IMG/VR virus record: IMGVR_UViG_3300037067_012889
Span: 256,001 to 320,000 of that record
Source: a virus
Lineage: Duplodnaviria > Caudoviricetes
DNA: 64,000 nt
Direction: 5' to 3' (one strand)
Both the position numbers and the translations under genes were made by a program. This document shows positions 10,125 to 64,000 of this stretch, piece after piece. Numbering within the stretch: the first letter of the stretch is position 1; each line of letters starts with the position of its first letter. The notes below the pieces were generated by a model. It ran no database searches and was not told the DNA's origin. It saw only the letters and a list, made by a program, of their open reading frames with translations.

Positions 10125-13100
10125 CTACGTTATCTTAAATGTCGTACTGGCGTGTGAGTAATATGTAGTACTAGTGTCCTCGTTAAAGATATATCCCATC
10201 ATATAATAAGTACCGGCCGCTACTGGTGTCGTGTCCCAGTCAAACGTCCAAGAGCCATTAGCCCCAGAAATCAAGCCAAACGACGCCCAGCCGGCTGCCG
10301 TATAGCCTGTTTTACTAGTAGTGTAACCGAGATTCACTTTATATGTAATACCTGGCTGAAGACCGGAAGCAGTCCATGTAACCGTGATATGTGTGCCTCT
10401 AGCATAACTTCCAGATAGCGGAGCTGTGATTGTGAATGTTACGGTCGGCAATGGCGTCCCTATTACTTGCGAATGCCATATTCCCACTATACCGCCAGAT
10501 GGGGCAACTCCTTGATAACCGCACCATGCCGCAACCCATTTTCCAGTACTATTATTACGTGCAACGTCGGGCCAATATTGATTGTCAATACCACGATGTG
10601 CTAGATTTGGATTATTAACAATATATTCATCTGTTGTCGCCACACCAGCAGCAGTAAAGCTTCTAGCAAGAATACCATATTTAGAAATGTTAGCAATCGG
10701 ATCGTCTGGAATATATGGATTATCCCATATGACTGTAAAATTGCCATCACGATCACACGCGATGCGATTGACATTCTGACCATAGTCACGTTTAGCTGTG
10801 TTAGCTAAAAATGGTACAGCCAATGCTGTGCCAGAACTATTATAACACCGGGTCCAAGTAGAATAACCACTTATTGTGCTACTATAGGCAGACCATATAA
10901 CAGTGAAAGCGCCAGATGCAGCCACTGCAACGTCAACACTAGCATTACTGCTACCTATCACTTCGTTTACAGTGTTAGTGTTAAATTCTGCTGCATATGG
11001 AACACCAGTAGATTTATATCTTCGGCACCAAGTAGAAGCATTGGCAGTAGTTGTTTGGTATGACCAAACAATAACAAAATCACCAGTCTCAGCAACACCC
11101 ACAGAAGGAAGTGTGCAATACCAATCACTTCCAGATGCATCGGATGTAGGAGTATTAACCTCGAAGTTGCTAGCAACCATGGTGCCAGCACCATCATAGC
11201 GCTGGCATTCGATATCTTGATACCAATTACCCGGAAATCCTGGTTTATTTGTAAGCCATAACCTTTCCCATACAACAATAAAGCTCTTATCAACTTGGTT
11301 CATCGAGATAGCTGGATTATAAAACCACGAATATGAAATAGCATTAACGCGGAATTGATTTCCAAGAGGTGTGCCGTTAGCACTATACATTCTTGCTTGA
11401 ATACCGCTACGTACAACAGCATCCGCTGTGTAATCAATATCCGGACCCGCCCACACAATCACAAAGGTGCCGTCTGGTGCCATAGCGATATCGGGAAACG
11501 AACTTGTTTGATCGCTGTACGACGGCACCACAAATTGTGGCGTCGTAGGATTGCCATTAGCATTAAAACATTGTGCCATTACGACTGGAACATTGTTGTT
11601 ATCATAATTGGCCCAAGTTATAGCAAACCGGCCATCATCGGCTGCATCTGAAACACGTGGATAAAGGTCATTGTGTGTTACTGGTTCTGGCGAAATCGGC
11701 TCTTGCGATTGTGATGGCGACGGTGATATTGAAGGCGATCTTGAAAGCGACGGCGATATTGAAGGCGATCTTGAAGGCGACGGCAATGATGGTGATGTAG
11801 AAGGCGACGGCAGCGATGGCGAAGGTAATGGCGAAGGTACTGACAATGAAGGTGTTGGCGACGGTGCTGATGGTGATACAGAAAGAGACGGAAGAGAAGG
11901 AGATACTGAAAATGAAGCCGACATCAGAGGAGAAAACGACAACGATGGCGACAACAAAGATGCAGAAGGAGATGGCGATGGTGATGGCGTTGGCGACAAT
12001 GATTGTGATGCGTATGAAGAAAGAGATAAGCTAAGAGATGGAGATGGCGGTGGTGGTAGTGGTGTAGGTGTTGGCGGCGGTGGAGGAGAAGGAGGCGGTA
12101 GTGAGGGTTTACAATCTTCTATAAATTCACCAAAATATGTCAATTTTCTCGGACATGTAGCAACAGCACTAAACCACATTTGTGATATTACATCGCCAGA
12201 ACTATCTAATCCTTTAATAAGCCATAATCTCTGAGTCCCCTTGGGGTGTCCTTCAACTTCAAGTGATCCAGATGCAGCGAAACTACCATAATAAACGCCT
12301 TCACAACCAGAGCAACACAAATCTCTACAATATAGCTTCGTACTGACAATATCGGTAGAGTCAGAAAACCATTCTAAAGTATATGGTGTACTTGCTCTTA
12401 CATATGGCGTATTGTATCCAGATGCACGCAAGTATTGGTAACCAGGAACTGAAAATGCAACAGTAAGCTTCTCGATATAAGTAGGGACAAAAGGATTGCT
12501 ATTGCCAAACATCACATCGTGCGTAAAATATTCTCCAAGATTTATTGTTGTTCCTGTCGATCCTAAAACCAACCCACCACTCCAAACATCACCTTTTTCT
12601 GGAACATTAAGCCCGGAATATTCTAATTGATGTGTGTACCAAGTTGCATATTGTGTCGTAAAGATAGTATGATCTATATCTGCGATTTCTATCGGCTGTG
12701 ACACCCATTGATTTGTTTCAAGATCGGTAACAGTGCAAGGATATAATATTGAAGCTTCATCCAAGAAAGCTGTGTAAGGTATTATATTTGGCCATCGGCA
12801 AATACGTAAGAGTGCCAAAACTGAATTCAATGTAGCTTCGTCATATGCGACTGAAATGTTGTCCTGATTGAGGCTCTGTAATTCTCTATTGATTCTCGTT
12901 ATCACGCCTTTGGTATCTGTTGATAACAAGCTAGCTATAGTGACGTTACCCCACATGTTCACGAACGGCGTGCCGGGCATCAGACTAGCATTTACAAAAC
13001 CAGTCAACATATATCTATTATCAAATGATATTGTATATTCTGGCGTTCCTGTTGACGAGGCCGTCGATAAGCTTATCTTGTTTGTTGGCACAAATTCCAT
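10125..13100 (-). CDS. large adhesin-like virion protein: N-terminal domain, Pro/Ser linker, ~60-aa beta-propeller-like repeats, C-terminal Ig-like domain
   Basis: Repeats such as GNQFRVN, ASNFEVNT and AAEFNTNT followed by P.VA...G.F.VVW. Start moved to ATG 13100, which lies just after the upstream stop. Confidence 0.65.
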   Translation of the reverse strand: MEFVPTNKISLSTASSTGTPEYTISFDNRYMLTGFVNASLMPGTPFVNMWGNVTIASLLSTDTKGVITRINRELQSLNQDNISVAYDEATLNSVLALLRICRWPNIIPYTAFLDEASILYPCTVTDLETNQWVSQPIEIADIDHTIFTTQYATWYTHQLEYSGLNVPEKGDVWSGGLVLGSTGTTINLGEYFTHDVMFGNSNPFVPTYIEKLTVAFSVPGYQYLRASGYNTPYVRASTPYTLEWFSDSTDIVSTKLYCRDLCCSGCEGVYYGSFAASGSLEVEGHPKGTQRLWLIKGLDSSGDVISQMWFSAVATCPRKLTYFGEFIEDCKPSLPPPSPPPPPTPTPLPPPPSPSLSLSLSSYASQSLSPTPSPSPSPSASLLSPSLSFSPLMSASFSVSPSLPSLSVSPSAPSPTPSLSVPSPLPSPSLPSPSTSPSLPSPSRSPSISPSLSRSPSISPSPSQSQEPISPEPVTHNDLYPRVSDAADDGRFAITWANYDNNNVPVVMAQCFNANGNPTTPQFVVPSYSDQTSSFPDIAMAPDGTFVIVWAGPDIDYTADAVVRSGIQARMYSANGTPLGNQFRVNAISYSWFYNPAISMNQVDKSFIVVWERLWLTNKPGFPGNWYQDIECQRYDGAGTMVASNFEVNTPTSDASGSDWYCTLPSVGVAETGDFVIVWSYQTTTANASTWCRRYKSTGVPYAAEFNTNTVNEVIGSSNASVDVAVAASGAFTVIWSAYSSTISGYSTWTRCYNSSGTALAVPFLANTAKRDYGQNVNRIACDRDGNFTVIWDNPYIPDDPIANISKYGILARSFTAAGVATTDEYIVNNPNLAHRGIDNQYWPDVARNNSTGKWVAAWCGYQGVAPSGGIVGIWHSQVIGTPLPTVTFTITAPLSGSYARGTHITVTWTASGLQPGITYKVNLGYTTSKTGYTAAGWASFGLISGANGSWTFDWDTTPVAAGTYYMMGYIFNEDTSTTYYSHASTTFKIT
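11700..12105 (-). repeat. low-complexity Pro/Ser-coding repeat (SPSPSLS...)
   Basis: Degenerate tandem units such as gaaggcgacggc / gatggcga on the plus strand, encoding a PS-rich linker on the minus strand. Confidence 0.85.
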
Positions 13101-13101
13101 A

Positions 13102-15408
13102 TTACGCTCCGCCTTGTAACACAGTGAACCAACAAGCATATTGAGGCGACGTCAAAACACCCTCGCTATTTATAGCAATGATAGCATAATTGTGTAATCC
13201 AGCAGTGCATTTTCCTATCGATACTGTGAAATCCATGCCACCAATAGTTGTGTTAGCGATCGGCCCAGTTGTTATCGCTAATTTCACACCATCAAGCCAC
13301 AACGACGCAGCATAAACACCTTTAGCATCATATGCATTAAAAGTGATTAAAAGATCTTGATTTGAATATAGGGTTGTCTGTGACTGACCAGCTGTTTTGA
13401 ATACTGCTGTCGTTCTTTCATCGGAATTGTATTGTGTAATGATGACATTGCGTATTGTCGAATTTGTACTATCAGTTATTACGCAATCAGATGTCGCAGT
13501 CGTCTCTTCCGTTACCGGCATCGGCAAGAACCCATTTACCGCAGTAATGTTAATCTTGTAATATCGATATGAGACGCCGTTAGAGAACGTAAACCATTCT
13601 GACCAGTTATCCATACCCGGTGGATCGATGTTGACTCTCGAATCTAACAAAGTCCAATTACTACCATCGTTAGATCCCAATAGCACGAAATCTTTAGGAA
13701 AGCCGTTTCCACTATCGTAATTCTGCTCATAGATGATTTCATTATTCGCAACGGTTGTACCATTATAATTCTGCTCTTGTATAGCATATTTATTTAATGG
13801 TACCGCATATCCTTCACCAAAATCATAAATAATATACCATGGCGGTACCGACGATGAACTTATCCATCTATCTGATTCACCACTATTAGTACTACTAAAT
13901 GCTTTCCATGCTGAATAGTTCGTAGCACGATAACTTGAATAATATTCGCCACTTGCAGTAACTACATTTGGAACCGGAACATTATCAGATGCCATCGTTG
14001 CGGCGCACGTTGTTGTATTTGTGTTATCTGCACCATCTATCGACGCACAAACTAACTTAAGTTCTGCGATGCTAACATATGTGACACTACCAACTACAGC
14101 AGTCACATTCAATCTATAATAACGATATGCTATACCGTTATCGAAAGTAAAGTATGAAGACCAAAGAGCAGGTCCTGGTGCATTAACACTTGTTCTTGTG
14201 TCTAATATCGTCCAAGTGCTATTGTCATTAGAACCTTGCAACGTAAAATCTTTCGGGAATCCAAGATAATTTGGTGAATTCCGTTCTTGTATTGCATACT
14301 TATTCACAATTACTGCAGTATTAAAATCATACTGCAAATAATGTGGAAGAGCCGTAGCCGCACTTAACCACCGATCATTTTCATCAGTGCATGTACCATT
14401 AAATGCCAGCCATGCCCCGGCTTGTTCACTATCCGCACTAGCTATATATGGAGACGGTGTTACGTCGGACGTCATAATAGTAGTACAAGTCGTGGTTGAT
14501 GCATTATTGGAACCATTCGTTTGTGTGCGAACGAATTTTATCTCACCAATAATTGCACAAGTAGATGGAAATGGATCTAATATAACTGTAGCGGGTGACG
14601 ATACTTCAACTGTAGTCGTTTGTTCAGCGTAAACTGTGGTGGTCGTTGTCTCAGCTATTACTTGTTGAACTGGCAATTCGCTCGTATCCATGCCGGGCAT
14701 CGGGAGTCCTGCACCAGCGACAGAAATAGCACCAGTAGCACCGGCAACCTTGTTAAATCTGATTGGTAATATTTCGCTCTGTGATATTCTCGATTTTATT
14801 ATGTTAAAAATGCACGAGTCATTATAACATCCTGGTGTATATGGATGTACTGGCATAATTACATCCTTGTTGACAAACACTATACTACTGCGAGATGCCA
14901 CAGCCGTGCTATATGTTATTTCCGTCAATTCATTCGTCGACAAATTCCGCGAATAGACCAAATAATCGTTTGTTGGAAATATGTTTTTACAAGAAGCAAC
15001 ATCTTTAACTGTCGATACCGCACTCGGATTTATTAAATCACGTTCGATTTTAATATCTGAGACGTCATATGATGTAGTTGCTGTTGTATCTATTACTTTT
15101 TTACTCTGCAAATATGCCAATAATTGATTGGCGTCCTGCATAGTAACGCTACCATCACCATTCACATCAACATATGGTGAACTTGTTGGTTTGTTCCTGG
15201 GTAATGTACCACTACCATGAGCAGATATGTAGTTAAGTATAGCATTGTAATCATCTATATCGACTACGCCGTCAGACAATACATCAAAACGATTTCCAGG
15301 GTTTTGCCATCTAGATACTCCAAGTATAACATTGCTAGTACTGAAGCTACTTATCAACGGCGTAATCTGGATTACTTCTACATAGGTTGTTAGTCCAATT
15401 TGTGCCAT
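13102..15408 (-). CDS. virion-associated protein with N-terminal dockerin-like domain and two F5/8 type C (discoidin) domains
   Basis: WQNPGNRFDVLSDGVVD..D...ILNYI...YVDVNGDGSVT..DA..LL paired EF-hand-like dockerin; two copies of AW.AF...RW.S.....P..L.YDF...FPKDF.L.GSND...WT.LD.R...YRYY. Confidence 0.75.
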   Translation of the reverse strand: MAQIGLTTYVEVIQITPLISSFSTSNVILGVSRWQNPGNRFDVLSDGVVDIDDYNAILNYISAHGSGTLPRNKPTSSPYVDVNGDGSVTMQDANQLLAYLQSKKVIDTTATTSYDVSDIKIERDLINPSAVSTVKDVASCKNIFPTNDYLVYSRNLSTNELTEITYSTAVASRSSIVFVNKDVIMPVHPYTPGCYNDSCIFNIIKSRISQSEILPIRFNKVAGATGAISVAGAGLPMPGMDTSELPVQQVIAETTTTTVYAEQTTTVEVSSPATVILDPFPSTCAIIGEIKFVRTQTNGSNNASTTTCTTIMTSDVTPSPYIASADSEQAGAWLAFNGTCTDENDRWLSAATALPHYLQYDFNTAVIVNKYAIQERNSPNYLGFPKDFTLQGSNDNSTWTILDTRTSVNAPGPALWSSYFTFDNGIAYRYYRLNVTAVVGSVTYVSIAELKLVCASIDGADNTNTTTCAATMASDNVPVPNVVTASGEYYSSYRATNYSAWKAFSSTNSGESDRWISSSSVPPWYIIYDFGEGYAVPLNKYAIQEQNYNGTTVANNEIIYEQNYDSGNGFPKDFVLLGSNDGSNWTLLDSRVNIDPPGMDNWSEWFTFSNGVSYRYYKINITAVNGFLPMPVTEETTATSDCVITDSTNSTIRNVIITQYNSDERTTAVFKTAGQSQTTLYSNQDLLITFNAYDAKGVYAASLWLDGVKLAITTGPIANTTIGGMDFTVSIGKCTAGLHNYAIIAINSEGVLTSPQYACWFTVLQGGA

Positions 15409-18912: not shown

Positions 18913-19419
18913 CTAACTCTTCATGGCACGGTCATATCGTAACGTCGCCTCGATCGTTGCGATGTCTGTCGCCGTATAATCGAGGTCACCCCAGTTCACT
19001 TCCTTGGGCCACGCATTGCACATGGTCCAAGTCTCTGTTGTGTTACCAGCAGCACCAATCATTTCGAGTGTCGCTTGCTGCTTATAAACAGACGGAGCAT
19101 ATACTATTGCTGTTGGGATGTCAACAACAGTATTCAGCCAAGCATATATCGTAGCAGAAATGTCTGGATCTTGCTCGACATCATACCACTTCATGCTGAC
19201 CGGTTCCCAAGTCTGCTTACCGGCAAAGTAAGCAACTTCCTGGTCATGGTGCATTTCTGGTTCTGCGAACTTGAAATTTGGTCGTGATGCCGACTGCAAC
19301 ACAAGCAATGCAGCAGAACTAATATCGCCTAGGGTCCTAAAGACCCAACGATGTTTTCTGCGGGTTTCTAGATTGGCGGCTGGGCCATTACCTGATCCAC
19401 AAATATTAAATCCTGGCAC
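18913..19419 (-). CDS. major tail tube protein (T4 gp19-like)
   Basis: YFAGKQTWEPVSMKWYD, YKQQATLEM, W...NAWP.EVNWGDLDY and LRYDRA motifs; strong AAGGAGG SD with GTG start. Confidence 0.85.
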   Translation of the reverse strand: MPGFNICGSGNGPAANLETRRKHRWVFRTLGDISSAALLVLQSASRPNFKFAEPEMHHDQEVAYFAGKQTWEPVSMKWYDVEQDPDISATIYAWLNTVVDIPTAIVYAPSVYKQQATLEMIGAAGNTTETWTMCNAWPKEVNWGDLDYTATDIATIEATLRYDRAMKS

Positions 19420-19536
19420 TAAACCCTCCTTCGAGGCTCATCGGACCACCAAATTGATGGGTATCCTCGGTATAATTTTAATGTTTGTGGAAATGTATTT
19501 CACCATTGGACATCCATTTTCACCATCAGGTGCATT

Positions 19537-20544
19537 ATGAAAGATCGCAAAGTCGAATATCATCTCCAGCGCCGACATCGTATCTCCAATAACTTATGTT
19601 TGATGTGTGGCGGTCCCCGCGATTCAGAAAAGTCATCCTGCTCTAAATGTCTTACTAGAAGAAGCGAACGCCGCAAGGCTGCTCGTAAAGCCAGACAAGC
19701 TATTGGCATTTGCTTGTGTGGCCGAACAATTTCAAAAGGGAAGATGTGCGACAGATGCAAAGAAAAGGGCAAAAAGGAAAGAGTGACACACGATAAACGC
19801 CGGATTGCTAAAGGGCTTTGCCCGAGATGTGGTAAAGCTCCGCTTCCTGGTAAGATTTATTGTGCTGCTCACGTTACTTATCAGACGTCGGCTGTCATGA
19901 AACGCTATAATTATCGCAGACTAAATAATCAATGCACTGTTTGTGGTAACAATTTGGTTATTGGAGAATCAGTACGTTGCAAATCTTGCAACGATATCCA
20001 TGTGGAGGCTAGCAGGCGCAAATGGCACAGAGATCGAAAGAAAGTTTTAGACCATTATGGCGCAAGGTGTATGTGCTGCGGCGAAACAACTTATGAATTC
20101 TTGGAGGTAGACCACATTAATGGCGACGGTAAGCAACATCGTCAAATAGTTGGTAGCCATATGATGAGCTGGATTGTAAGACATAAATTCCCAGCAGATT
20201 TTAGGATATTATGTGCTAATTGTAATCGTGGTGTTGCGCATTATAAAGTATGTCCACATAACAAAGCAGTTATACCATATAGTAAAAAACATAAGACGCG
20301 GCTAAAAGTTATTTCCCACTACGGTAGCAAATGCGTTTGTTGTGGTGAATCGAATTGGGCTTTTCTAGAATTCGATCATATCAACAATGATGGTAATATC
20401 CATAGAAGAGACGTGAAAATTAATGCTGCGTGGATTATCGCAAATGACTATCCAGACTACTTACAGTTGTTATGTGCAAATTGTAATAAAGCTAAAGGGC
20501 TTTATGGTAAATGTCCACATAACAATCTCACAAGCAATCAATAG
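19537..20544 (+). CDS. free-standing HNH endonuclease with four zinc ribbons and two tandem HNH domains
   Basis: Two copies of HYG.C.CCGE....FLE.DHIN.DG..HR...LCANCN; N-terminal CxxC repeats; inserted on the opposite strand between the sheath and tube genes. Confidence 0.85.
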   Translation: MKDRKVEYHLQRRHRISNNLCLMCGGPRDSEKSSCSKCLTRRSERRKAARKARQAIGICLCGRTISKGKMCDRCKEKGKKERVTHDKRRIAKGLCPRCGKAPLPGKIYCAAHVTYQTSAVMKRYNYRRLNNQCTVCGNNLVIGESVRCKSCNDIHVEASRRKWHRDRKKVLDHYGARCMCCGETTYEFLEVDHINGDGKQHRQIVGSHMMSWIVRHKFPADFRILCANCNRGVAHYKVCPHNKAVIPYSKKHKTRLKVISHYGSKCVCCGESNWAFLEFDHINNDGNIHRRDVKINAAWIIANDYPDYLQLLCANCNKAKGLYGKCPHNNLTSNQ

Positions 20545-20547
20545 ATT

Positions 20548-20586
20548 ATCGATATTTTTGGTGAGCCGGTCGTAGAGAGCCATCTG
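20548..20586 (+). pseudogene. inverted remnant of a tail sheath gene 5' segment
   Basis: Encodes IDIFGEPVVESHL versus sheath residues 52-64 IDIFGEPFVESYL (23783-23821, minus strand); 11/13 aa and 30/39 nt identical. Confidence 0.75.
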
Positions 20587-20649
20587 ACAAGTATTTTAAG
20601 AAAGGTTAAATTAACCTTCACGAAATCTTCACGAGCAAGGAGAAGAATT

Positions 20650-21048
20650 ATGGAACGTGAACCCATCTATTGGAGTCCAAAATACAAAGCATTCCTGGAA
20701 TCTTTTGTTGAGTCTAGCAGCTTTCCAAAGATGACTAAAGCCGCAGCAGTTTTCAACGTGATGACAACAACACCACGCCCAAGTGATCCGGAGATGACGA
20801 TGTTAGATCAGGCTATTGTTTGCGACAAACTGCATGATGGCGAGCCAGCCGTCATCTACCACGAATTAGAGAAGCGCTGGCCTGATTTCTTTGCTGGTAT
20901 ACCAATTAAGCAGGGCGGTAGGCTTACAGATACCATAAAAGGTCAATTTATCAGTCGGTTCATAACTATCTATTTATATGGCGGCATATCTAGATATATA
21001 AAGGAAAAGCGTCGCAAACATCAAGCTGATGTTATGGCTATATCCTAA
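20650..21048 (+). CDS. hypothetical protein
   Basis: 132 aa, AGGAGA SD, followed by a strong hairpin. Confidence 0.65.
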   Translation: MEREPIYWSPKYKAFLESFVESSSFPKMTKAAAVFNVMTTTPRPSDPEMTMLDQAIVCDKLHDGEPAVIYHELEKRWPDFFAGIPIKQGGRLTDTIKGQFISRFITIYLYGGISRYIKEKRRKHQADVMAIS

Positions 21049-21086
21049 ATATGACAGAGGCCAGCTTTCGCTGGCCTCTGTCATAT
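21049..21086. terminator. stem-loop between convergent genes (sheath and 132-aa ORF)
   Basis: Perfect 17-bp stem atatgacagaggccagc / gctggcctctgtcatat; loop reads GAAA on the minus strand. Confidence 0.75.
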
Positions 21087-21100
21087 AACTGATAATAGAA

Positions 21101-23974
21101 CTATCTACCGCTAGTCACAACGCCACCAGCAGCCAAGATTTCCTCAGAACTAAAGGAAGCCGAAGACTGCATCACGACGAGGTTAAGTACGATGAACTCA
21201 ATCGTCCGAGTTGGCTTGATGAAAATCGACACCCACAATTGATTGAGATCTCGTCTTGCAGCTGTATTATTCGTCTCATCGCAAATCACATTGTAAGCAT
21301 CAATTCCGCGTCGTGCTTGGATATCTGCCATGAATGGATTAATGAGAGTTCGAACCTGAGCCCATGTCGTAGAATCATTTGGTTCAAAAACAAATGATCG
21401 AAGTGTCTCGACCAAGTTCTTTTTAAGGTAAATGAGCAACATACGTACATTGACTCTATCGAGTGCCGTGTCCGTGCGCTGTAATGTACGCTGGCCGAAG
21501 ACCACAATACCATCCTTCGGGAATGATACTAGTGGATTGACGGCATTGCCACTACCATACAACAAGTCACGTTCACCCTGGCTAGGATTATATTCTACAG
21601 CCAACGGTGTTGTCAAAACACCACGGTTGATGCCAGCCGGAGCATACCATTGCTCTGCAACGTTTGCAGTCTTGGCGAAAACACCGGCAACATAACCAGA
21701 AGGCGGAACCCAAATGTTCTGCTTGCTGAACTGATCATAAATTTCGAGCCAGCTCCAGTACAAAGCACCATAGCTGCTGTTAATCGCGTGCGACAAGTCG
21801 GAAAGCAACATCCCATTATGCCAATCAACCACTTGCTGCGGCCTAAGACCGAATGGAGGATCGACTATGAACAGTGCATCACCGCGACTCTCACACAATT
21901 GCAATCCCTGACCAATAACAGCACCAGATGTCATGCCAGGAATAACCAGCAGGTTGATATCGTATGTCTCGGAATTCTGTACACCATACATGCCGCTCGA
22001 TTCTTCCGCATTGCCGATGATGGCGGCATCTAGTTCGCTAGAATATGCCGGATCAGTCGGAATGCCGTTAGCACCACCGCTGAATGCGTGTTTCGAGAGT
22101 TGGGCTGGTTGACGAACCTCGTAAGTGCTTACATCCGATTCATCATTATTAAGGAATGCTGGACGATCTTCCCAGTTGATGAAGTCGTTTCCGTTCGTCC
22201 CACCATATGTTGTACCTGGATTCAAGACATTACCGATATATCGAGCATCAGTCTTATCAAAACTGATGTTTTGAATATTATCGGCAGTAGCACCGTCTGG
22301 ATCTGTGATGACTATTTGATATCGCGCGGCAGCATTACCTGCGATCTGCGTCTGCAACGACAGCGTCAACGTGTAATCATCAAGCCATGTTCCGGCACTC
22401 GTAGCCACAAACCACCCAACAATGCCTTGGAAATATGCAGTGTCCAATGCACAATCGGGACCACTCGGATCTGTCTCGCATGACAGTGGGACAGACGGAG
22501 TTATTTCGCCAGTAGCGGGCAACGACACGCGGCTGTCATAGAACCCGCGATAGGCTTTGGTATAAGGAGAGAGGATTCCAACCTCCTCGGCAAACGTCAA
22601 CGTCTTTAGATTGGAGTAATTAGCCTTTAAATATAGCTGATCTAATTTATGCGATGCAGACGTCGTGCTACCGGCTACAATAACAATATGCGGGATGCCG
22701 CCAGGAGCTGTTATTGCAAACGATGTGAAATATGTGTCGCCAGCATAGATCCCGTTGCCATTGATTGCGGCTGCGAGTGTTGCAGCTGTCAAATTCGTTC
22801 CAGTTGGTATAGTGAAATTGAAGCTCACCGTATCACTTCTATCTGCCGGAATGACATCGATCGCAACACGGTTGCTCTGGCTGTTAATAAAGAATGGTTC
22901 TGCGTCAGACCCGTACAGATAACTGCGTGGAATATCGTACGAGTACTGTGGTAGCGTACCACCTCCGACTTCCTCAGCAAAAGCACATGTTCCAACAAGT
23001 TGGATACGATCACCAGCTACTTTTGTGCGGAATTCTGGATAATCTACACCATTCGTCGTTATGACCACGGCGGCATAATCTTCGACTGCAATGAGTGCGT
23101 TAATCGCAACAATGAGATCGTCGGCCGAAGTATATGTCGCAGCGGCCATCGTATATGTGCCGCCGACACCATTGACCTGGACTTCAAACTCTCTGTTGTT
23201 CGGTCTGGCTGTGAAAGAGAACATGTCGTTCGTATCTAACCGGCCATCAGTAACAAGAATGTTACAAACGAGACCGTCACCGATATCGATATTATCGCTC
23301 GTACCAGCAATTTTCTCGGTCAATGTACCGCTAACCATCATCGCGTTATCAGATGCGCGATATAGCTTAAAAGTCGCACCTTCGATAGCAAATCCGTCAT
23401 CAGACTTACCAGTGATAAACAACGAGTAAACGTCATCCGAACAACCGGTATAGTCGTCGCTCAAATCGGTTTGGCCAGTGAACTGCAACGTCGCAGCAGT
23501 TGGGCCATCAGTGATCGACACACTAACATCGGTATATGTGATATCTTCAACACCGGCGTCGTGAAATACGACTGGCGAAGTTGAAGATACAGCTCGCATA
23601 ACCAACTCACCATAATCAATACCGGTGAAAATCGGTATGCGGTTCCAGCCATTGATTCGATCCCCAGAGGTATCGATACAAACAGCACTTAGCTCGTCCG
23701 CCTGCCCGTCCTGGCATTCAATGCCAACACGAATGACATATGCTTGGTTGCTTTCCTCTAAGTAGGCAAGCACGGCATACATCAAATAGCTCTCAACAAA
23801 CGGCTCGCCAAATATGTCAATTGCTTGCTGGGCACCACTCACAAAAATCGGAGTGTTCATAGGCCCTTTTTTGGCCGTGCCAACAAATGCCGCACGTAGC
23901 GGCCCGGTATTGCCGGTGACTGCACTAAGGTCTATTTCCCTTGGATAAACACCAGGGCTCAGATATGTGGGCAT
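21101..23974 (-). CDS. contractile tail sheath protein (gp18-like) with large insertion domains
   Basis: YLSPGVYPREIDLS, FVGTAKKGP, SSYGALYWSW, VPPSG.VAG, WYAPAGINRG, GQRTLQ..TALDRVNVR, FVFEPND and IKPTRTIEFI motifs. Confidence 0.95.
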   Translation of the reverse strand: MPTYLSPGVYPREIDLSAVTGNTGPLRAAFVGTAKKGPMNTPIFVSGAQQAIDIFGEPFVESYLMYAVLAYLEESNQAYVIRVGIECQDGQADELSAVCIDTSGDRINGWNRIPIFTGIDYGELVMRAVSSTSPVVFHDAGVEDITYTDVSVSITDGPTAATLQFTGQTDLSDDYTGCSDDVYSLFITGKSDDGFAIEGATFKLYRASDNAMMVSGTLTEKIAGTSDNIDIGDGLVCNILVTDGRLDTNDMFSFTARPNNREFEVQVNGVGGTYTMAAATYTSADDLIVAINALIAVEDYAAVVITTNGVDYPEFRTKVAGDRIQLVGTCAFAEEVGGGTLPQYSYDIPRSYLYGSDAEPFFINSQSNRVAIDVIPADRSDTVSFNFTIPTGTNLTAATLAAAINGNGIYAGDTYFTSFAITAPGGIPHIVIVAGSTTSASHKLDQLYLKANYSNLKTLTFAEEVGILSPYTKAYRGFYDSRVSLPATGEITPSVPLSCETDPSGPDCALDTAYFQGIVGWFVATSAGTWLDDYTLTLSLQTQIAGNAAARYQIVITDPDGATADNIQNISFDKTDARYIGNVLNPGTTYGGTNGNDFINWEDRPAFLNNDESDVSTYEVRQPAQLSKHAFSGGANGIPTDPAYSSELDAAIIGNAEESSGMYGVQNSETYDINLLVIPGMTSGAVIGQGLQLCESRGDALFIVDPPFGLRPQQVVDWHNGMLLSDLSHAINSSYGALYWSWLEIYDQFSKQNIWVPPSGYVAGVFAKTANVAEQWYAPAGINRGVLTTPLAVEYNPSQGERDLLYGSGNAVNPLVSFPKDGIVVFGQRTLQRTDTALDRVNVRMLLIYLKKNLVETLRSFVFEPNDSTTWAQVRTLINPFMADIQARRGIDAYNVICDETNNTAARRDLNQLWVSIFIKPTRTIEFIVLNLVVMQSSASFSSEEILAAGGVVTSGR

Positions 23975-24128
23975 TGTTGATCTCCGTTGTCTAATAACCG
24001 AACTATGATAAATTTGCCGACAACCGCAAGAAACGCGGCAAATCTCAATTTCTCTTTATCGATTATGCATTACAAAACCGATAGGTATTCTTCTATATAT
24101 TTAGTTCGATATATATGGCGACCAACAA

Positions 24129-24392
24129 TTATACTATATTGTTATTATTAGAGTTATCAGATTTCTCACTATCATGCAAGATCTTTATGATTCGCTTCGA
24201 TGTCAAGTTAGAGATCTGCGATTCATTTAAGAAGCTCTTAGGTAAACGGACAGTCTTTCCTGGATTCAGATAGATAGTTTGCTCGTGTAGAAAAAAGTCG
24301 CCAGCAGGTGGCCTGACAGAAATAGGAACCATTTGCTTACTACAATTGTAAATCTGTACAACATAATTGTGCTCTTTAATATTCTGTTTCAT
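24129..24392 (-). CDS. hypothetical small structural protein
   Basis: 87 aa, AAGGTGG SD, between the tail terminator and sheath genes. Confidence 0.6.
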   Translation of the reverse strand: MKQNIKEHNYVVQIYNCSKQMVPISVRPPAGDFFLHEQTIYLNPGKTVRLPKSFLNESQISNLTSKRIIKILHDSEKSDNSNNNNIV

Positions 24393-26257: not shown

Positions 26258-26782
26258 TCACATTGATAAAGGAATATCATCGACAGGACTGTCTCGTGGA
26301 TCATTACCATAATAGTATGGACCAAACAATAATGATGGAGTGATTCCAAAAATTTCACCTTCTGGAACATATCGTTTTACAGGCGGAGGCATTTGTTCTT
26401 GGAAATTCTTCGTCGATGGGCACCAACCTTGATTCAAAACGGCGCAATCCGGTGGCTGCCGTGGCATTTCTTCATTTCCGCCAAGACTACGAAGAATACT
26501 ATAATAATCGGGCATTGGCGTACATGGGCAATTTATATAATATGGGGGCAGTACGAACCATTTCTTACTAGATCCATTTGATTGCCCATTATTTATTTGC
26601 CATTCTATGGTAGAACCGGGAATGGCAGCCAACGCAACGGATAATTTTACATATGTGCTCTTGCAATTACGGAGAAAAGAAAGACTTGAAGTAGTAAAGG
26701 ATGCCTCTGGTTCGCATCCCGGAATAGCTACACTATCTTGCCCGACCACTTCAAGCTTATTAGCTATGTAGATCTGTCGCAT
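26258..26782 (-). CDS. hypothetical protein (Cys/Pro-rich, probably structural)
   Basis: 174-aa ORF overlapping the end of the endonuclease gene. Confidence 0.55.
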   Translation of the reverse strand: MRQIYIANKLEVVGQDSVAIPGCEPEASFTTSSLSFLRNCKSTYVKLSVALAAIPGSTIEWQINNGQSNGSSKKWFVLPPYYINCPCTPMPDYYSILRSLGGNEEMPRQPPDCAVLNQGWCPSTKNFQEQMPPPVKRYVPEGEIFGITPSLLFGPYYYGNDPRDSPVDDIPLSM

Positions 26783-28089
26783 TTGTAAATAAACCTATGT
26801 TTTGGACCACCATATATTTTAATGTAGCCATATTTCGCAGCATACTCTGCTTCGCCTAATCCCATTTTACATGCGTGGTCCCATAAAGTCTTTTTATGCA
26901 TTACATATCCTGCATCAGACACATACCAGTATGACGGTTTAGTATTGCCATCATACCGCCAATTTGATGCCTTGTAAATTGTACCGGTATGATTATATGA
27001 ACTATCGGAGAACGCAATGATAGTAGTTACTAATGGTTTATCAGACCGAAGCATCTTAACACACCGTGCAAGAAACCAGCTGGCAAAATTCTTTTTATGA
27101 TAAGATGGATGAATACAAAATCTTGTCAATTCAATCAATTTACCTTTTGGTAGCCCTAATCTTGTTGATGATTCATTTCTAGTGGGCGAGTCGAAAACAC
27201 ATACCGCGATCACGTCATCTCCTAACATAGCGGCATATCTAATACCAGACTTATTAATTCTACCAGCGTAATGATACTTCCCTAAAAACAATTCAGATTC
27301 TAACCTATCTATTGATACCAATTTCAATTCATGTAATTCAAATTGGACAATGTCCAGTGTTTTGCCAGTCCAATATGCCAATAAATCAAGTATTCGTTGT
27401 TTACATAGGAATTCATGTTCCCATAGATATTTAAGAGTATATTGTGGAAAGTTTTTTAAGTACGTAGCCTTCTGTTGGTCTTTGATTATCGCCTGCGGAC
27501 GCTGGTGCCAATAATCGCCCTGGCATTCTATTATTATATTATGATCTGGCAAAAAACAATCATATGACCAGAATCCAATTAATTTTTCTGGTTCATAGGC
27601 GATATTTAAATCGTCGAGAAATGAATAAAGAGTCTTCTGTATGTTCGATATTCTACCGAGCTGGTTTGCGGCCAAACACGCCATTTTCTCTTTAATAGAA
27701 GCATAATTGCCACACATTTTTTGCCGATATTTAGCATCAGACCATTGTCTATGCATTTGCTCTGAAATTTTAGCTGATCTAATTAGCCCAGCTTGACTAT
27801 AACTACGTACTTTAATATCAAACTTTTTTAGCAATTTCCCTATAGATGGTCTGTCCAAACCAATAACTTTCGATATCTCTTCTGTAGACAAGCTCTGTTT
27901 ACAATATAAATCATATAATTGTTCTTTAGTGACTAGAGATGTACGACTTTTTCTACGTATAACATTAAACTCTTTTAGCAACTTACAAACCATAGCGGCA
28001 GAACAGTTAAATCGCCTAGCAAGATCACATACCCTAGATCCAGCATTATATTGCTCAACGATTAACTCTACGTTATTTGTAATGTTCAT
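26764..28089 (-). CDS. HTH + Vsr/DUF559-like endonuclease + Mom-like GNAT domain fusion
   Basis: YDCFLPDHNIIIECQGDYWH...KD..K...LWEHE (Vsr-like); FLGKYHY, ELTRFCI, NFASWFLAR and AFSD...HTGTIYKASNW.Y.G (Mom-like). Confidence 0.75.
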   Translation of the reverse strand: MNITNNVELIVEQYNAGSRVCDLARRFNCSAAMVCKLLKEFNVIRRKSRTSLVTKEQLYDLYCKQSLSTEEISKVIGLDRPSIGKLLKKFDIKVRSYSQAGLIRSAKISEQMHRQWSDAKYRQKMCGNYASIKEKMACLAANQLGRISNIQKTLYSFLDDLNIAYEPEKLIGFWSYDCFLPDHNIIIECQGDYWHQRPQAIIKDQQKATYLKNFPQYTLKYLWEHEFLCKQRILDLLAYWTGKTLDIVQFELHELKLVSIDRLESELFLGKYHYAGRINKSGIRYAAMLGDDVIAVCVFDSPTRNESSTRLGLPKGKLIELTRFCIHPSYHKKNFASWFLARCVKMLRSDKPLVTTIIAFSDSSYNHTGTIYKASNWRYDGNTKPSYWYVSDAGYVMHKKTLWDHACKMGLGEAEYAAKYGYIKIYGGPKHRFIYKCDRST

Positions 28090-42279: not shown

Positions 42280-43557
42280 CTAGCTGTTGAGTTCGTCTAA
42301 AAGACGATCAACCTCGCCATCAGCGTCGTCAACAACCTCTTCAGACGACTCATCCGATTCTTCGGCTGGCACTTCGCCATCTAATATATCGGCCTCGACT
42401 TCAACTTCAGCCTCGACTTCGGCCTCGACTTCGGCCTCGACTTCGGCCTCAGCAACCGGATCATCCTCTAACTCAGGATCCGGTTCGACTTTTTTGGGCT
42501 TTGCCGCCGCTGGCTTAGCTGCTGGCTTGGTTGCTGCCGCCGCTGGCTTGGCCGCTGGCTTAGCTGCTGGCTTGGCTGCTGGCTTAGTTGCTGGCTTGGC
42601 TGCTGGCTTAGCTGCCGCCGCCGCTGGCTTAGCTGCCGCCGCCGCTGGCTTGGCTGCTGGCTTGGCTGCTGGCTTGGCTGCCGGTTCTTCAACATCCTCG
42701 GAAACCGCAGCGTCTTCATCTTGGTCGAATCCACCAGATGCTGCGGCCTTAGTCGCTGCTCGCCCGCTCAGCACTGCAGTGACCTTAGCAACCTCTTCAA
42801 GATCGACGGTCGGCATCTTTTCCCAGAGATTTTGTCGCTTTGCAAGTATCTCCTCGATCCGTTTTGGGTCGGCTTGCTTGGAAACCTTGTCGAGAGCGAG
42901 TGGTCTCTTTGAACCGGGACCGGTCAAGAACTTCGATCTTTTGTAGCTATTCATCTGTCCATCTTTGTAGACTTCAAGCTGAAACATCGAAGCATTATTT
43001 TCATCGAAGAACACACCAAATGGTAGCGGCTCTGCAGGATCGCCGCCATCATCATCACGATAAAGGCATTCAAGCCAAATATCGACAACGGTCTTTGGTG
43101 CGTTCCACCATAAGACCTTGCTACGAAGTTCTTCAGGATTCAGTTCGAGCGGTGGGAAATAGAGATTGACCAAATGATACTGGCCGGGAAGAAGCGCTTT
43201 GCCGATCTCGCCACGTTTTTTCTTACCTTCGACAGTCGTGCCATCGATTTCAGATAAGAGATCGAAGCCATATTGGCAGATCTCACATTCCTCATCATTG
43301 ATAATACGCGGACAACCGATCCGCTTATTATCAATATAATGGGCACCATTCGGAATTGCGAACAATTCCATGGTTCGTTCACACGTCGCTTTGCCCTCGT
43401 TGCAGAGATCGCCTTCTTGCAATGGTGGCAAAACAAAGAACCGAAACTTCGCTACTTTATCGCCATCCATTTTGGGGGCTCGGAATTCTGTTGGATCCCT
43501 GCCCTTCTTCAATTTAGCTCTAACTTGAGCCCTAATAGCTTCAATGTCATATGCCAC
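42280..43557 (-). CDS. single-stranded DNA-binding protein (gp32-like) with AAKP repeats and acidic tail
   Basis: FRFFVLPP, H....GCPR....CEIC zinc site, Y..SKF, and acidic C-terminus ending VDRLLDELNS; located next to the UvsY-like and exonuclease genes. Confidence 0.7.
   Translation of the reverse strand: MAYDIEAIRAQVRAKLKKGRDPTEFRAPKMDGDKVAKFRFFVLPPLQEGDLCNEGKATCERTMELFAIPNGAHYIDNKRIGCPRIINDEECEICQYGFDLLSEIDGTTVEGKKKRGEIGKALLPGQYHLVNLYFPPLELNPEELRSKVLWWNAPKTVVDIWLECLYRDDDGGDPAEPLPFGVFFDENNASMFQLEVYKDGQMNSYKRSKFLTGPGSKRPLALDKVSKQADPKRIEEILAKRQNLWEKMPTVDLEEVAKVTAVLSGRAATKAAASGGFDQDEDAAVSEDVEEPAAKPAAKPAAKPAAAAAKPAAAAAKPAAKPATKPAAKPAAKPAAKPAAAATKPAAKPAAAKPKKVEPDPELEDDPVAEAEVEAEVEAEVEAEVEVEADILDGEVPAEESDESSEEVVDDADGEVDRLLDELNS
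42390..42690 (-). repeat. 12-nt coding tandem repeats (EAEV and AAKP)
   Basis: gcctcgacttcg and gctgctggcttg units on the plus strand. Confidence 0.9.
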
Positions 43558-53952: not shown

Positions 53953-54413
53953 CATTTTCTTACTACTGTCGGCGATTGGCATGGACCATAAATGACTCGC
54001 TGTGGCTTGATTACGAGACCATCTAATGCACGTTTCAGATCACATGGATCGATATTTATTTCGAGTTGTGCTATAGCTTCAGTAACAGCTTTAATAAGTG
54101 TCGATTGACATGATGGTGGAACAAACCCATATAATGGATCGCTCACAGATGGCGGCGTGCCGGTATCGTATATTGAAATCCATAGCCCATCATTGGCATT
54201 TATAATGTCCAGAGATGTCGGCAACTCCGCTTTATAATTTCCAGTTCCAACCGTACCAACTAAGACTTCTGGCATATCTACGAACACCGGAACAGCAGTG
54301 CTAACATCTTCAAGATTAGTACCATTCCACACTTGTGATAAATCATAATTATATGGAAGAAACTTGACATTCGTAAGACCAGAAATGCCAAGATTTATGA
54401 TGATTGTGGCCAT
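53949..54413 (-). CDS. hypothetical structural protein
   Basis: 154 aa, coupled to the collagen fibre operon. Confidence 0.6.
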   Translation of the reverse strand: MATIIINLGISGLTNVKFLPYNYDLSQVWNGTNLEDVSTAVPVFVDMPEVLVGTVGTGNYKAELPTSLDIINANDGLWISIYDTGTPPSVSDPLYGFVPPSCQSTLIKAVTEAIAQLEINIDPCDLKRALDGLVIKPQRVIYGPCQSPTVVRKC

Positions 54414-56048
54414 TTATAATTCTGCCTCTGCGGTCCAATGACAATTGCACCAACAACTAGCCAACAACGGCCCAACTGACGGAAGTTGGAAGCTCCTAAA
54501 AGCAGGAGATGCAGCTCCCGTTGCGTAATCGCCCTTGGCTACCCCTGAGTAATTCCATAAAGAAAACATCCAAATCGTACCAAGAGATTGAGAATATGTC
54601 GTGACGGTAGGTATCTTAAATTTCACCGCAGTGAAATCTTTCACGTTCGGAACAATAACATTCGTTGTTAGTGAACTTACTGAAAAAACTCCCGAAGAAG
54701 GACCCGCTGTCCCAGGCATCACATCGAGATCATAACTCTTCTCATAATATCTCTGACATAACGCCAACTCTTCCCCTATTGGTCTAGGATTCCAAGCACG
54801 TGCAGGACCGACATGGCAATCGACCTGTGTCAAACCAAACGAGTAACCTGTTATTGGAGATTCTGTCCAAAAGAAAACGATTAGATTGTTGCAGGCACTA
54901 CTTATTGTCGCTGATAAGCTAATTGGAGTAAGACTGCTTGTTACTACCGAAGAACCAACAGCGGCCACAACCAAATTGCTTGCTAAAAAGAAATTGTTTG
55001 GTGTGTAAGATGTACTAGTCCAATCTTTCACTACATCGCTTGTCACTGTATCTGCCACACCTGTCCATTCTAATATAGCATAACGTAAAACAAACGCTGG
55101 TGGAGCAGTAGTTGTCGCTTCGGCCTGCAAAATCACAGTTTGCCCACGTAATGGGAATGAATTAGCACCTTCAACAATTTGCAACAAACCCATTCTTTGT
55201 GCTGTGGCATTGTTCTGTACTGCTAATCCTTCAAACGGCCCAGGTTGTGCTGGTGTACCAGTTGCTAAATTCCAACGCGTAGTTTCGATAGTTGTGGTTT
55301 GTGTTAAAGCTACCCAACGATCGAAACAATATGTATCGTCGACCGATGTGTAGTAATATCCGTATTCATTACGATTTCGTTGAAAGAAATCAAATCCGCC
55401 ATTGATGATTACATTATCAATACCACTCGGACCAGTAGCACCAGAAAGACCAGTTAGGCCGGTCGAACCAATAGAACCCTGAGTACCAACAGGGCCTGTA
55501 GCACCAGTTAATCCAGCCCCTGTAGCACCAATTAATCCAGTAGATCCACGCGGGCCTGTAGCACCAGTTAAACCAGTGCCCGTGGCTCCATTTGGTCCTG
55601 CAACTCCGGTGCTCCCCGTGGCTCCCGTTGGGCCTCCTAAAGGTCCCGTTGCACCTACCGGCCCAGTAGAGCCCGTCGCACCTGTCGGCCCACCGGCTGG
55701 CCCCGTCGCACCAGAAGCACCATCTACACCAGTTGCACCAACACTACCAGTCGCACCAGTCAAGCCAGTAGCACCAAGACCGGTAGCACCAAGACCGGTA
55801 GCACCAGTAGCACCGGTAGGACCACCCAATGGACCTGTGGCACCAGTATAGCCTGTCGCACCAGTAGCGCCTATTGAACCAGATCCACCAGAAACAGTCT
55901 TTTCAGAGCCATCAGAAAATCTCATATTAATAACTACTGTAGTATCACTACCTGTAGTTAGCCATTGATAGACAATATTTTCTGGCGGATTATCACCAAA
56001 AACAGGCGCTGATGTTAATTGTACTACTCTGAATTCTTTAAATTTCAT
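54414..56048 (-). CDS. collagen-like fibre protein with carbohydrate-binding-like C-terminal domain
   Basis: G-A-T repeats, then [13 protein letters not shown]...FDRW and [18 protein letters not shown], motifs common in phage fibres. Confidence 0.8.
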
Positions 56049-56050
56049 AG

Positions 56051-58627
<2,577 letters not shown>

Positions 58628-58684
58628 AATATACCTATACAGCTCGATGTATCGCTATCCTTATTATGTTTGGTTGTATAAAAT

Positions 58685-64000
<5,316 letters not shown>

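Follow-up and report, generated by a model that had tools for sequence, protein, structure and literature searches.

The stretch of DNA analysed here, called the window, comprises 64,000 nucleotides (nt), bases 256001-320000 of the 363,885-bp jumbo phage record IMGVR_UViG_3300037067_012889 in IMG/VR. On its minus strand lie a tail sheath gene of 957 amino acids (aa) and three gp19-like tail tube paralogues, and the gap between the sheath stop and the start of the first tube paralogue (tube1) holds two plus-strand genes, an open reading frame (ORF) of 335 aa with two HNH domains and an ORF of 132 aa. The 124-nt region at the 3' end of the double-HNH gene is the remnant of a C-terminal extension of this gene that was derived from the sheath gene. 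As judged by comparison with related sequences, the extension was probably gained once in a small clade and then lost or cut off repeatedly. The TAG stop of the window gene is a derived state, in which a fixed CAG-to-TAG (C-to-T) change truncates the extension after five codons.

The plus-strand piece at 20527-20586 reads LTSNQ, a stop and IIDIFGEPVVESHL, in frame with the HNH ORF (19537-20544). It aligned without gaps to residues 45-64 of the sheath (minus strand, 23842-23783), about 3.2 kb off. Within the core (sheath residues 52-64), 30 of 39 nt and 11 of 13 aa were identical, and six of the nine nt differences were synonymous. The TAG took the position of sheath Gln50, and the frame stayed open for 35 codons past it, up to the ATG of the 132-aa ORF (20650), so that a lone TAG divides one open frame of 503 codons comprising the HNH gene, the extension and the 132-aa ORF. 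These features were reproduced as the original prediction had described them. The sheath homology it proposed also withstood shuffling: the ungapped BLOSUM62 score of 56 was reached in none of 2000 shuffles (maxima of 37 against the sheath and 45 against all 89 other ORFs of the window) and by none of 2845 random real 60-mers (maximum 41), with the position directly after the HNH stop taken as given.

Three parts of the piece can be told apart. LTSNQ (20527-20541), the last five codons of the HNH gene, is the still-translated start of the extension and corresponds to sheath residues 45-49 in the alignment to two relatives and to the sheath profile. It is followed by the TAG (20542-20544) and by the untranslated remainder, IIDIFGEPVVESHLT (20545-20589, sheath residues 51-65), which was delimited by alignment and shuffle tests. 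The homologous part of the sheath gene, as defined by alignment and profile, is codons 43-74 (23753-23848, minus strand), which include the conserved family motif QQ-x-ID-x-FGEP.

When all ORFs of the window were compared with one another, the match was weak (tblastn, 26.2 bits, E=0.27 for the sheath alone), and the sheath profile gave the window piece 7.6 bits. Since this match was borderline, it was the extensions found in relatives that settled the homology. Relatives were collected from IMG/VR with the sheath (the best 80 of 161 relatives were retained) and with the HNH protein (nine loci). In L081 (contig of L003), with an HNH protein 81% identical to that of the window, CAG stands in place of TAG and the ORF runs on through the extension, which lengthens the sheath match to residues about 42-74. 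A hidden Markov model built from 67 sheath N-termini was searched against 49,287 six-frame pieces of all loci and gave the L081 extension 21.5 bits (E=1.8e-4), while the best other non-sheath piece reached 7.7 bits; with a full-length sheath profile the L081 extension was again the single outlier. In the reciprocal direction, the top 60 phmmer matches of the 33-aa L081 extension consisted only of sheath ORFs and the window's own piece. A further relative, P0155, a 1454-bp Joint Genome Institute contig whose HNH protein is 84% identical to that of the window, has Gln-Gln at this place (ITSNQQ) and continues in frame. In the clade with the extension, the usual HNH end (Cys-Pro-His plus a few residues) is thus followed in frame by about 32 codons that resemble sheath codons ~43-74. 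The homology is therefore real, and as L081 and P0155 both keep an open Gln codon, Gln is the ancestral state and TAG the derived one. A chance resemblance of a short stretch to the sheath could still have drawn on the E value of 0.27 and on the 8-residue core IID-x-FGEP, which occurs in many unrelated metagenomic proteins. It has been refuted by the shuffles, the score of the L081 extension and the reciprocal search that returned only sheaths, and we give it practically no credence.

The L081 extension shows a further peculiarity: L081:6005-6164 contains two tandem copies of a unit of about 76-78 nt, the second of which is frameshifted, 79% identical to the first and bears the stop codon. A direct-repeat match of 60% between the L081 HNH 3' coding region and its extension was also considered and was dismissed as chance; it lies in another frame and the window has no such repeat.

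The TAG itself was covered by contigs from three studies (groundwater, wastewater and landfill runs) with no differences, and this agreement shows that it is not an assembly error. Recoding or readthrough of TAG as Gln was ruled out by the lack of a suppressor, none of the seven tRNAs of the genome having a CTA anticodon, and by normal TAG usage, with TAG ending 74 of 297 long ORFs (25%).

The extension has a narrow distribution. A HMMER search against 1.84 billion representative proteins returned 23,294 relatives of the HNH protein. For nearly all of the best 150 of these the alignment stopped at Cys-Pro-His, the end of the second HNH domain, and the few longer alignments among them ran into unrelated C-terminal domains. 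Among the 50 closest database proteins only P0155 carried the extension, and it was not found in the other ~200 family members inspected. The expectation that homologues would each be followed by a fragment of a neighbouring gene was not borne out: there was no such fragment in any of the six longest-matching proteins of the top 150, one (P0155) in the 50 closest, and none in the other orthologues at this locus outside the clade. Two stricter pattern scans of IMG/VR recovered the L081 contig only, and a word-index protein search with the extension alone gave no match. A metagenome scan with the degenerate pattern x-I-I-D-x-F-G-E-P was too loose; beyond the L081 contig it returned 120 stretches, all unrelated, many of them with the bacterial motif EIIDRFGEPP. 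This motif presumably belongs to Mfd.

Within the clade, the HNH proteins of L081 and L082 are 96% identical, those of the window and L081 81%, and those of the window and L084 65%. L082 (3302-5064) has a mosaic cassette without the extension, which ends in Cys-Pro-His-His-Lys and has a 3' end like that of L084. The L084 gene also has no extension and ends directly at the sheath terminator hairpin. From these identities and the tailless L082 it follows that the extension predates the split of the window and L081 lineages and has been lost at least once. A rearrangement of another kind was found at L083:5936-6019 (contig of L004), where the HNH 3' end after Lys-Ala-Lys-Gly-Leu-Tyr-Gly gives way to 38 nt that fold back, across a loop of 8 nt, on the upstream coding sequence of the gene (97% complementary), and the final Cys-Pro-His is gone. 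It has the look of a rearrangement by template switching, although it may be an assembly artefact.

The gene that carries the extension is predicted to be a sporadic free-standing double-HNH homing endonuclease at the sheath-tube junction. Its best PHROG match was phrog_2255 'HNH endonuclease' (E=1.9e-19, two stretches), while no Pfam HNH model passed for the 335-aa protein and its HNH profile found no match among the PDB sequences. The protein consists of four zinc-ribbon-like Cys-pair repeats in its N-terminal part and two HNH domains, and in the family alignment the Cys pairs and the Asp-His and Asn columns were invariant in both repeated domains. A Foldseek search with its AlphaFold model gave weak matches, mostly to HNH domains. 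No Hint domain or intein blocks were found, and an Rfam scan of 19000-24200 detected neither a group I intron nor any other RNA family. The gene is intergenic and on the strand opposite to the sheath, and it is present as a single copy in the 364-kb genome. In this genome no other gene fragments were found at E<0.05, save repeat families and the stretch shared by the two contig ends.

The window, L001, L003, L004 and L082 all have the gene at this junction with identical orientation, as do the distant loci L021, L029, L030 and L085, whose HNH proteins are ~43% identical; L088 is exceptional in that two tube paralogues flank the gene. The gene is missing from L002, L005-L008 and L010-L013, where the sheath-to-tube1 gap is 30-215 nt. 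Genomes with and without the gene interleave by sheath similarity, L003 being nearest to L002, and L004 to L007 and L010. An HNH-less relative was even present in the probable source groundwater sample at similar depth (16.3 vs 12.6): in a contig from there, a 38-nt spacer of the L011 type is all that separates 19418 from 21114. The sporadic presence, the HNH-less relatives, the varied insertions at the junction and the absence of an intron or Hint domain together give the anatomy of a free-standing homing endonuclease of the kind known from T-even phages (PMC2988022). Sliding identity over the sheath and tube1 showed no co-conversion tract, at low power, as all genomes are ~75-80% identical in nt. 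As a possible signature of a target site, sheath codons 45-76 were compared between HNH-plus and HNH-minus alleles, and no consistent difference was found. The sheath-tube junction of this jumbo-phage group is an insertion hot spot used by mobile genes of more than one kind.

Two other insertions were seen at this junction. L009:12915-14516 holds an unrelated nuclease-like ORF of 533 aa on the sheath strand, in which several short motifs, by eye, are in common with a 441-aa ORF of the window (26764-28089). In L082 an ORF of 248 aa lies between the HNH gene and the sheath.

How the sheath piece reached the HNH gene can be judged from its sequence and position. Its start coincides exactly with the 3' boundary of the cassette, and its orientation is opposite to that of the sheath gene. 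Compared with the sampled sheath alleles it matched at 29-37 of 48 nt, and the resident allele (33/48) was not favoured, so a recent gene conversion from the resident sheath was rejected. The sheath alleles of the clade are ~25% apart in nt, mostly at wobble sites. Val60 is present in all three extensions and is typical of the window's close sheath clade and a few others, while most other sheaths have Pro. The original prediction had taken the piece to come from a different sheath allele rather than from a recent copy of the resident one. Its second half stands, as no allele matched at more than 37/48 nt, but a foreign donor is not needed, because the piece is older than the divergence of the HNH lineages represented by the window, L081 and P0155, and a copy taken long ago from the sheath of the lineage itself would look alike.

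On balance we regard as probable an old capture of a sheath piece at the HNH 3' junction, by illegitimate recombination or repair or by a template switch, of which the window piece is now a decaying relic. The extension would have a single origin in the common ancestor of the window, L081 and P0155 lineages, where an inverted copy of about 100 nt of sheath coding DNA was placed at the 3' boundary of the cassette and eliminated its stop codon. The likeliest donor would be the sheath gene of the lineage itself, ~3 kb away, or else the sheath gene of a relative present in the same infection; the likeliest mechanism would be illegitimate repair of a double-strand break, or a template switch during replication, at this boundary. 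In the window the piece would now have no function of its own and be decaying. Break repair or template switching is favoured because the copy is inverted, from nearby and at the boundary, in a family in which L083 has a fold-back and L082 a mosaic replacement. Illegitimate, microhomology-mediated break repair has been documented for homing in phage T4 (PMC2988022).

A different history was preferred in the original prediction, namely that the nuclease once sat in frame within a relative's sheath gene and the piece is the scar. More broadly, its former home might have been the 5' part of the sheath gene in a relative, or a place beside it, from where it carried the downstream flank along, so that the fragment would mark its homing site at ID-x-FGEP. 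The fragment is indeed in frame and begins exactly at the usual end of the HNH family, and conserved motifs of essential genes are typical targets of homing endonucleases. Free-standing endonucleases cut hundreds to thousands of bp from their own gene (PMC2988022), which puts a sheath site 2.8-3.2 kb away within range and is compatible with the weaker idea that the piece mirrors a distant cleavage site in the conserved motif. However, nearly all readable orthologues, down to 43% identity, were found at the sheath-tube junction and antiparallel to the sheath (L088 being the exception), indicating that this junction is the ancestral home. Sheath codons 1-42 were not found upstream of the HNH gene, and the sheath was uninterrupted in 80 of the 80 loci kept. 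An intron or intein origin is opposed by the absence of Hint or intein blocks and of a group I intron; moreover, the extension begins with Asn-Asn-Leu/Ile, so that the residue after His-Asn is Asn and not Cys, Ser or Thr. The lack of a consistent difference between HNH-plus and HNH-minus sheaths at codons 45-76 also speaks against a homing site there. The in-frame scar was therefore poorly supported, and a former home in or beside the sheath gene is a doubtful explanation.

Several observations nevertheless weigh against an old capture that is now a decaying relic. The mechanism of capture is a proposal for which no microhomology was found at the junction, and the sampled sheaths offered no donor allele above 77% nt identity. 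The continuity of frame from the HNH gene through the extension to the 132-aa ORF is left unexplained and may be due to chance, for which we roughly estimate 1 in 10. A dead relic would also not predict the covariation of extension and sheath at codons 54 and 61 described below. Finally, the constraint on the extension points to an unnamed function in the relatives, so that the word relic applies to the genome of the window only.

The constraint was evident from the relatives. P0155 and L081 agree at 23 of 32 aa of the extension (72%), and at 78% of residues when the whole aligned protein is compared. Over 20 codons of the extension (20521-20580, to codon 62), the window diverges from L081 by 0.125 at codon positions 1+2 and by 0.30 at position 3, against 0.13 and 0.46 in the HNH body. 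By our inference, a neutral peptide with such third-position change would keep about a quarter of its residues. The translated extension is thus under constraint in the relatives, since it is conserved like the enzyme body and above the neutral expectation. Past codon 66 the window could not be aligned to the L081 extension (divergence 0.58/0.74), and the leader of the orphan 132-aa ORF has taken the place of the rest of the window extension. Judging by how well the first 20 codons are preserved, the nonsense mutation in the window seems to be fairly recent.

The residues of the extension also matched those of the own sheath, with Ile54 and Glu61 in the window (20548-20586 and 23783-23821) and Thr54 and Asp61 in L081/L003. 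These two codons were the only differences between the window and L003 sheaths in the compared stretch. The pattern comes from two genomes and was noticed post hoc; it is unlikely to have arisen by chance, for which our rough estimate is about one in a thousand. Codons 54 and 61 are flanked by wobble mismatches, which argue against simple conversion tracts.

These findings bear on the alternative that the extension is a selected module, either a sheath-mimicking peptide or a kept DNA copy of a recognition sequence, whose window version has been knocked out. In its favour are the conservation of the extension like that of the HNH body in two translating lineages, the parallel substitutions at codons 54 and 61, and the precedent of I-TevI, the autorepression operator of which resembles the enzyme's homing site (PMC2988022). 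On the other hand, the extension is dispensable: it was lost in L082, is not present in L084 or in the other members examined, and is cut off here in a strain from three habitats. In the AlphaFold model it is predicted with low confidence to be disordered, detached from the enzyme and unpacked (predicted local distance difference test 32-50), with just two sequences covering it in the alignment. The conserved sheath Gly56 is Val in P0155, and the extension is acidic, unlike a DNA-binding arm as judged from its sequence. Overall a selected module is an unlikely alternative. It is likewise improbable that selection has kept the extension tracking the resident sheath, as a sheath-mimicking peptide or as a copy of a distant recognition site, and this version is retained mainly for the covariation at codons 54 and 61. 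Were it so, the peptide might tie the nuclease to the tail-assembly machinery or to a binder of that sheath segment, and the window would hold a recently knocked-out version; neither do we consider likely.

A more speculative proposal of the original prediction was that the piece serves as a 3'-encoded guide or decoy RNA that, in the manner of TnpB, aims the nuclease at the sheath alleles of competitors. Only the 3' position and the wobble mismatches to the resident allele are in keeping with it. Most homologues have no downstream fragment, the sister locus L082 has lost the fragment and kept the nuclease, and the protein contains only zinc ribbons and HNH domains, with no RuvC, TnpB or IscB features found. 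The region matched no Rfam family, and its folding z-scores were 0.25 and -2.08 with structures that differed between the two genomes, giving no conserved fold. In the relatives the piece is translated protein sequence. Moreover, it has the same sense as the sheath mRNA, and the HNH transcript could therefore not pair with that mRNA. A guide or decoy RNA is accordingly very improbable.

The captured extension can be set beside known systems. Like the free-standing HNH endonucleases of T-even phages (mob genes such as MobE, and Hef, which act in intronless homing), the gene is a lone HNH gene between conserved essential genes, sporadic and with variable neighbouring insertions. It differs from them in its two HNH domains and four zinc-ribbon-like repeats, its homing role being predicted from sequence, and in the C-terminal extension from a neighbouring structural gene in one clade. 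In a literature search we found no such structural-gene-derived extension described for phage free-standing endonucleases. In fungal and algal organelles, partial duplications of host genes occur beside free-standing or in-frame homing endonuclease ORFs, and there too a fragment of the neighbouring gene adjoins the endonuclease ORF in frame. In organelles the insertion displaces the end of the gene, and it is this end that is duplicated, without a change of orientation. The sheath piece, in contrast, stems from the 5' region of its gene (codons 43-74), with the insertion site ~2.8 kb off at the sheath 3' end; it is also inverted and displaces nothing.

Inverted duplications by fold-back or template switch are likewise short inverted copies of nearby sequence at a break-prone junction, the 38-nt fold-back of L083 being a classic example, and T4 homing yields microhomology junctions (PMC2988022). 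Compared with duplications by illegitimate repair, however, the sheath piece is old, its edges are eroded and no junction microhomology has been demonstrated. The I-TevI operator is similar in being a copy-like sequence of the presumed target near the endonuclease gene, but it lies upstream, in the promoter, and is untranslated, whereas the piece described here is located 3' and is coding in the relatives.

The locus is a natural example of a mobile nuclease gene that rearranges its own surroundings. A piece of an essential structural gene became part of a nuclease protein, was kept for long in some lineages and is being lost in others. Taken at face value, the sequences would document an exon-like capture by a phage homing endonuclease. 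If the extension does mirror the cleavage site or a partner, the targets of homing endonucleases could be read from the 3' end of their genes. As it stands, the case is a modest evolutionary curiosity and not a new targeting mechanism; the mechanism is ordinary and the outcome unusual.

The remaining features of the locus are as follows. The left flank of the insertion site is formed by tube1 (18913-19419, minus strand; gp19-like, Pfam PF06841, E=1.3e-8), which is 89-92% identical in close relatives whether or not they have the HNH gene. Between the tube1 start and the HNH start lies a divergent intergenic region (19420-19536), defined by comparison with L003 and with HNH-less relatives. Although non-coding, it is ~80% identical to its L003 counterpart (by eye, uncomputed), and apart from the tube1 ribosome-binding site it could not be aligned to the junction of the HNH-less relatives. 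Divergent promoters seem likely in this region. The double-HNH gene follows (19537-20544, plus strand; stop TAG at 20542-20544), assigned by its PHROG match, the alignment columns and the pattern of presence and absence. Beyond the untranslated remainder of the extension, the spacer at 20590-20649 (plus strand) has diverged from L081 and is unalignable to the relatives' extensions; it contains an AT-rich hairpin (20602-20618), found by folding, and AAGGAG, the ribosome-binding site of the 132-aa ORF. This orphan ORF (20650-21048, plus strand) has its own strong ribosome-binding site and is in the frame of the HNH gene and extension. It occurs only in this genome: it had no Pfam or PHROG match, its sole database match was itself, and it was not present at any related locus.

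The right edge of the insertion site is a hairpin with a perfect 17-bp stem just past the sheath stop (21049-21086), which the comparison of relatives showed to be kept in most of the close ones, whether they carry the HNH gene or not. It is likely, from its structure and position, to act as a bidirectional terminator. The sheath gene itself occupies 21101-23974 on the minus strand (957 aa; Pfam PF04984 and PF17482). A megablast search of the region against phage GenBank sequences gave no match.

Elsewhere in the window (54000-64000, 10125-13139 and 42287-42946) very large ORFs consist of repeats of the Gly-Ala-Thr-Gly type or the Pro-Val-Ala-Pro type, which cross-match one another and a second region of the genome (~116-123 kb). 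The two ends of the record (284-1633 and 363830-363883) have an identical stretch of 18 codons in common, an overlap that suggests terminal redundancy or a circularly permuted assembly.

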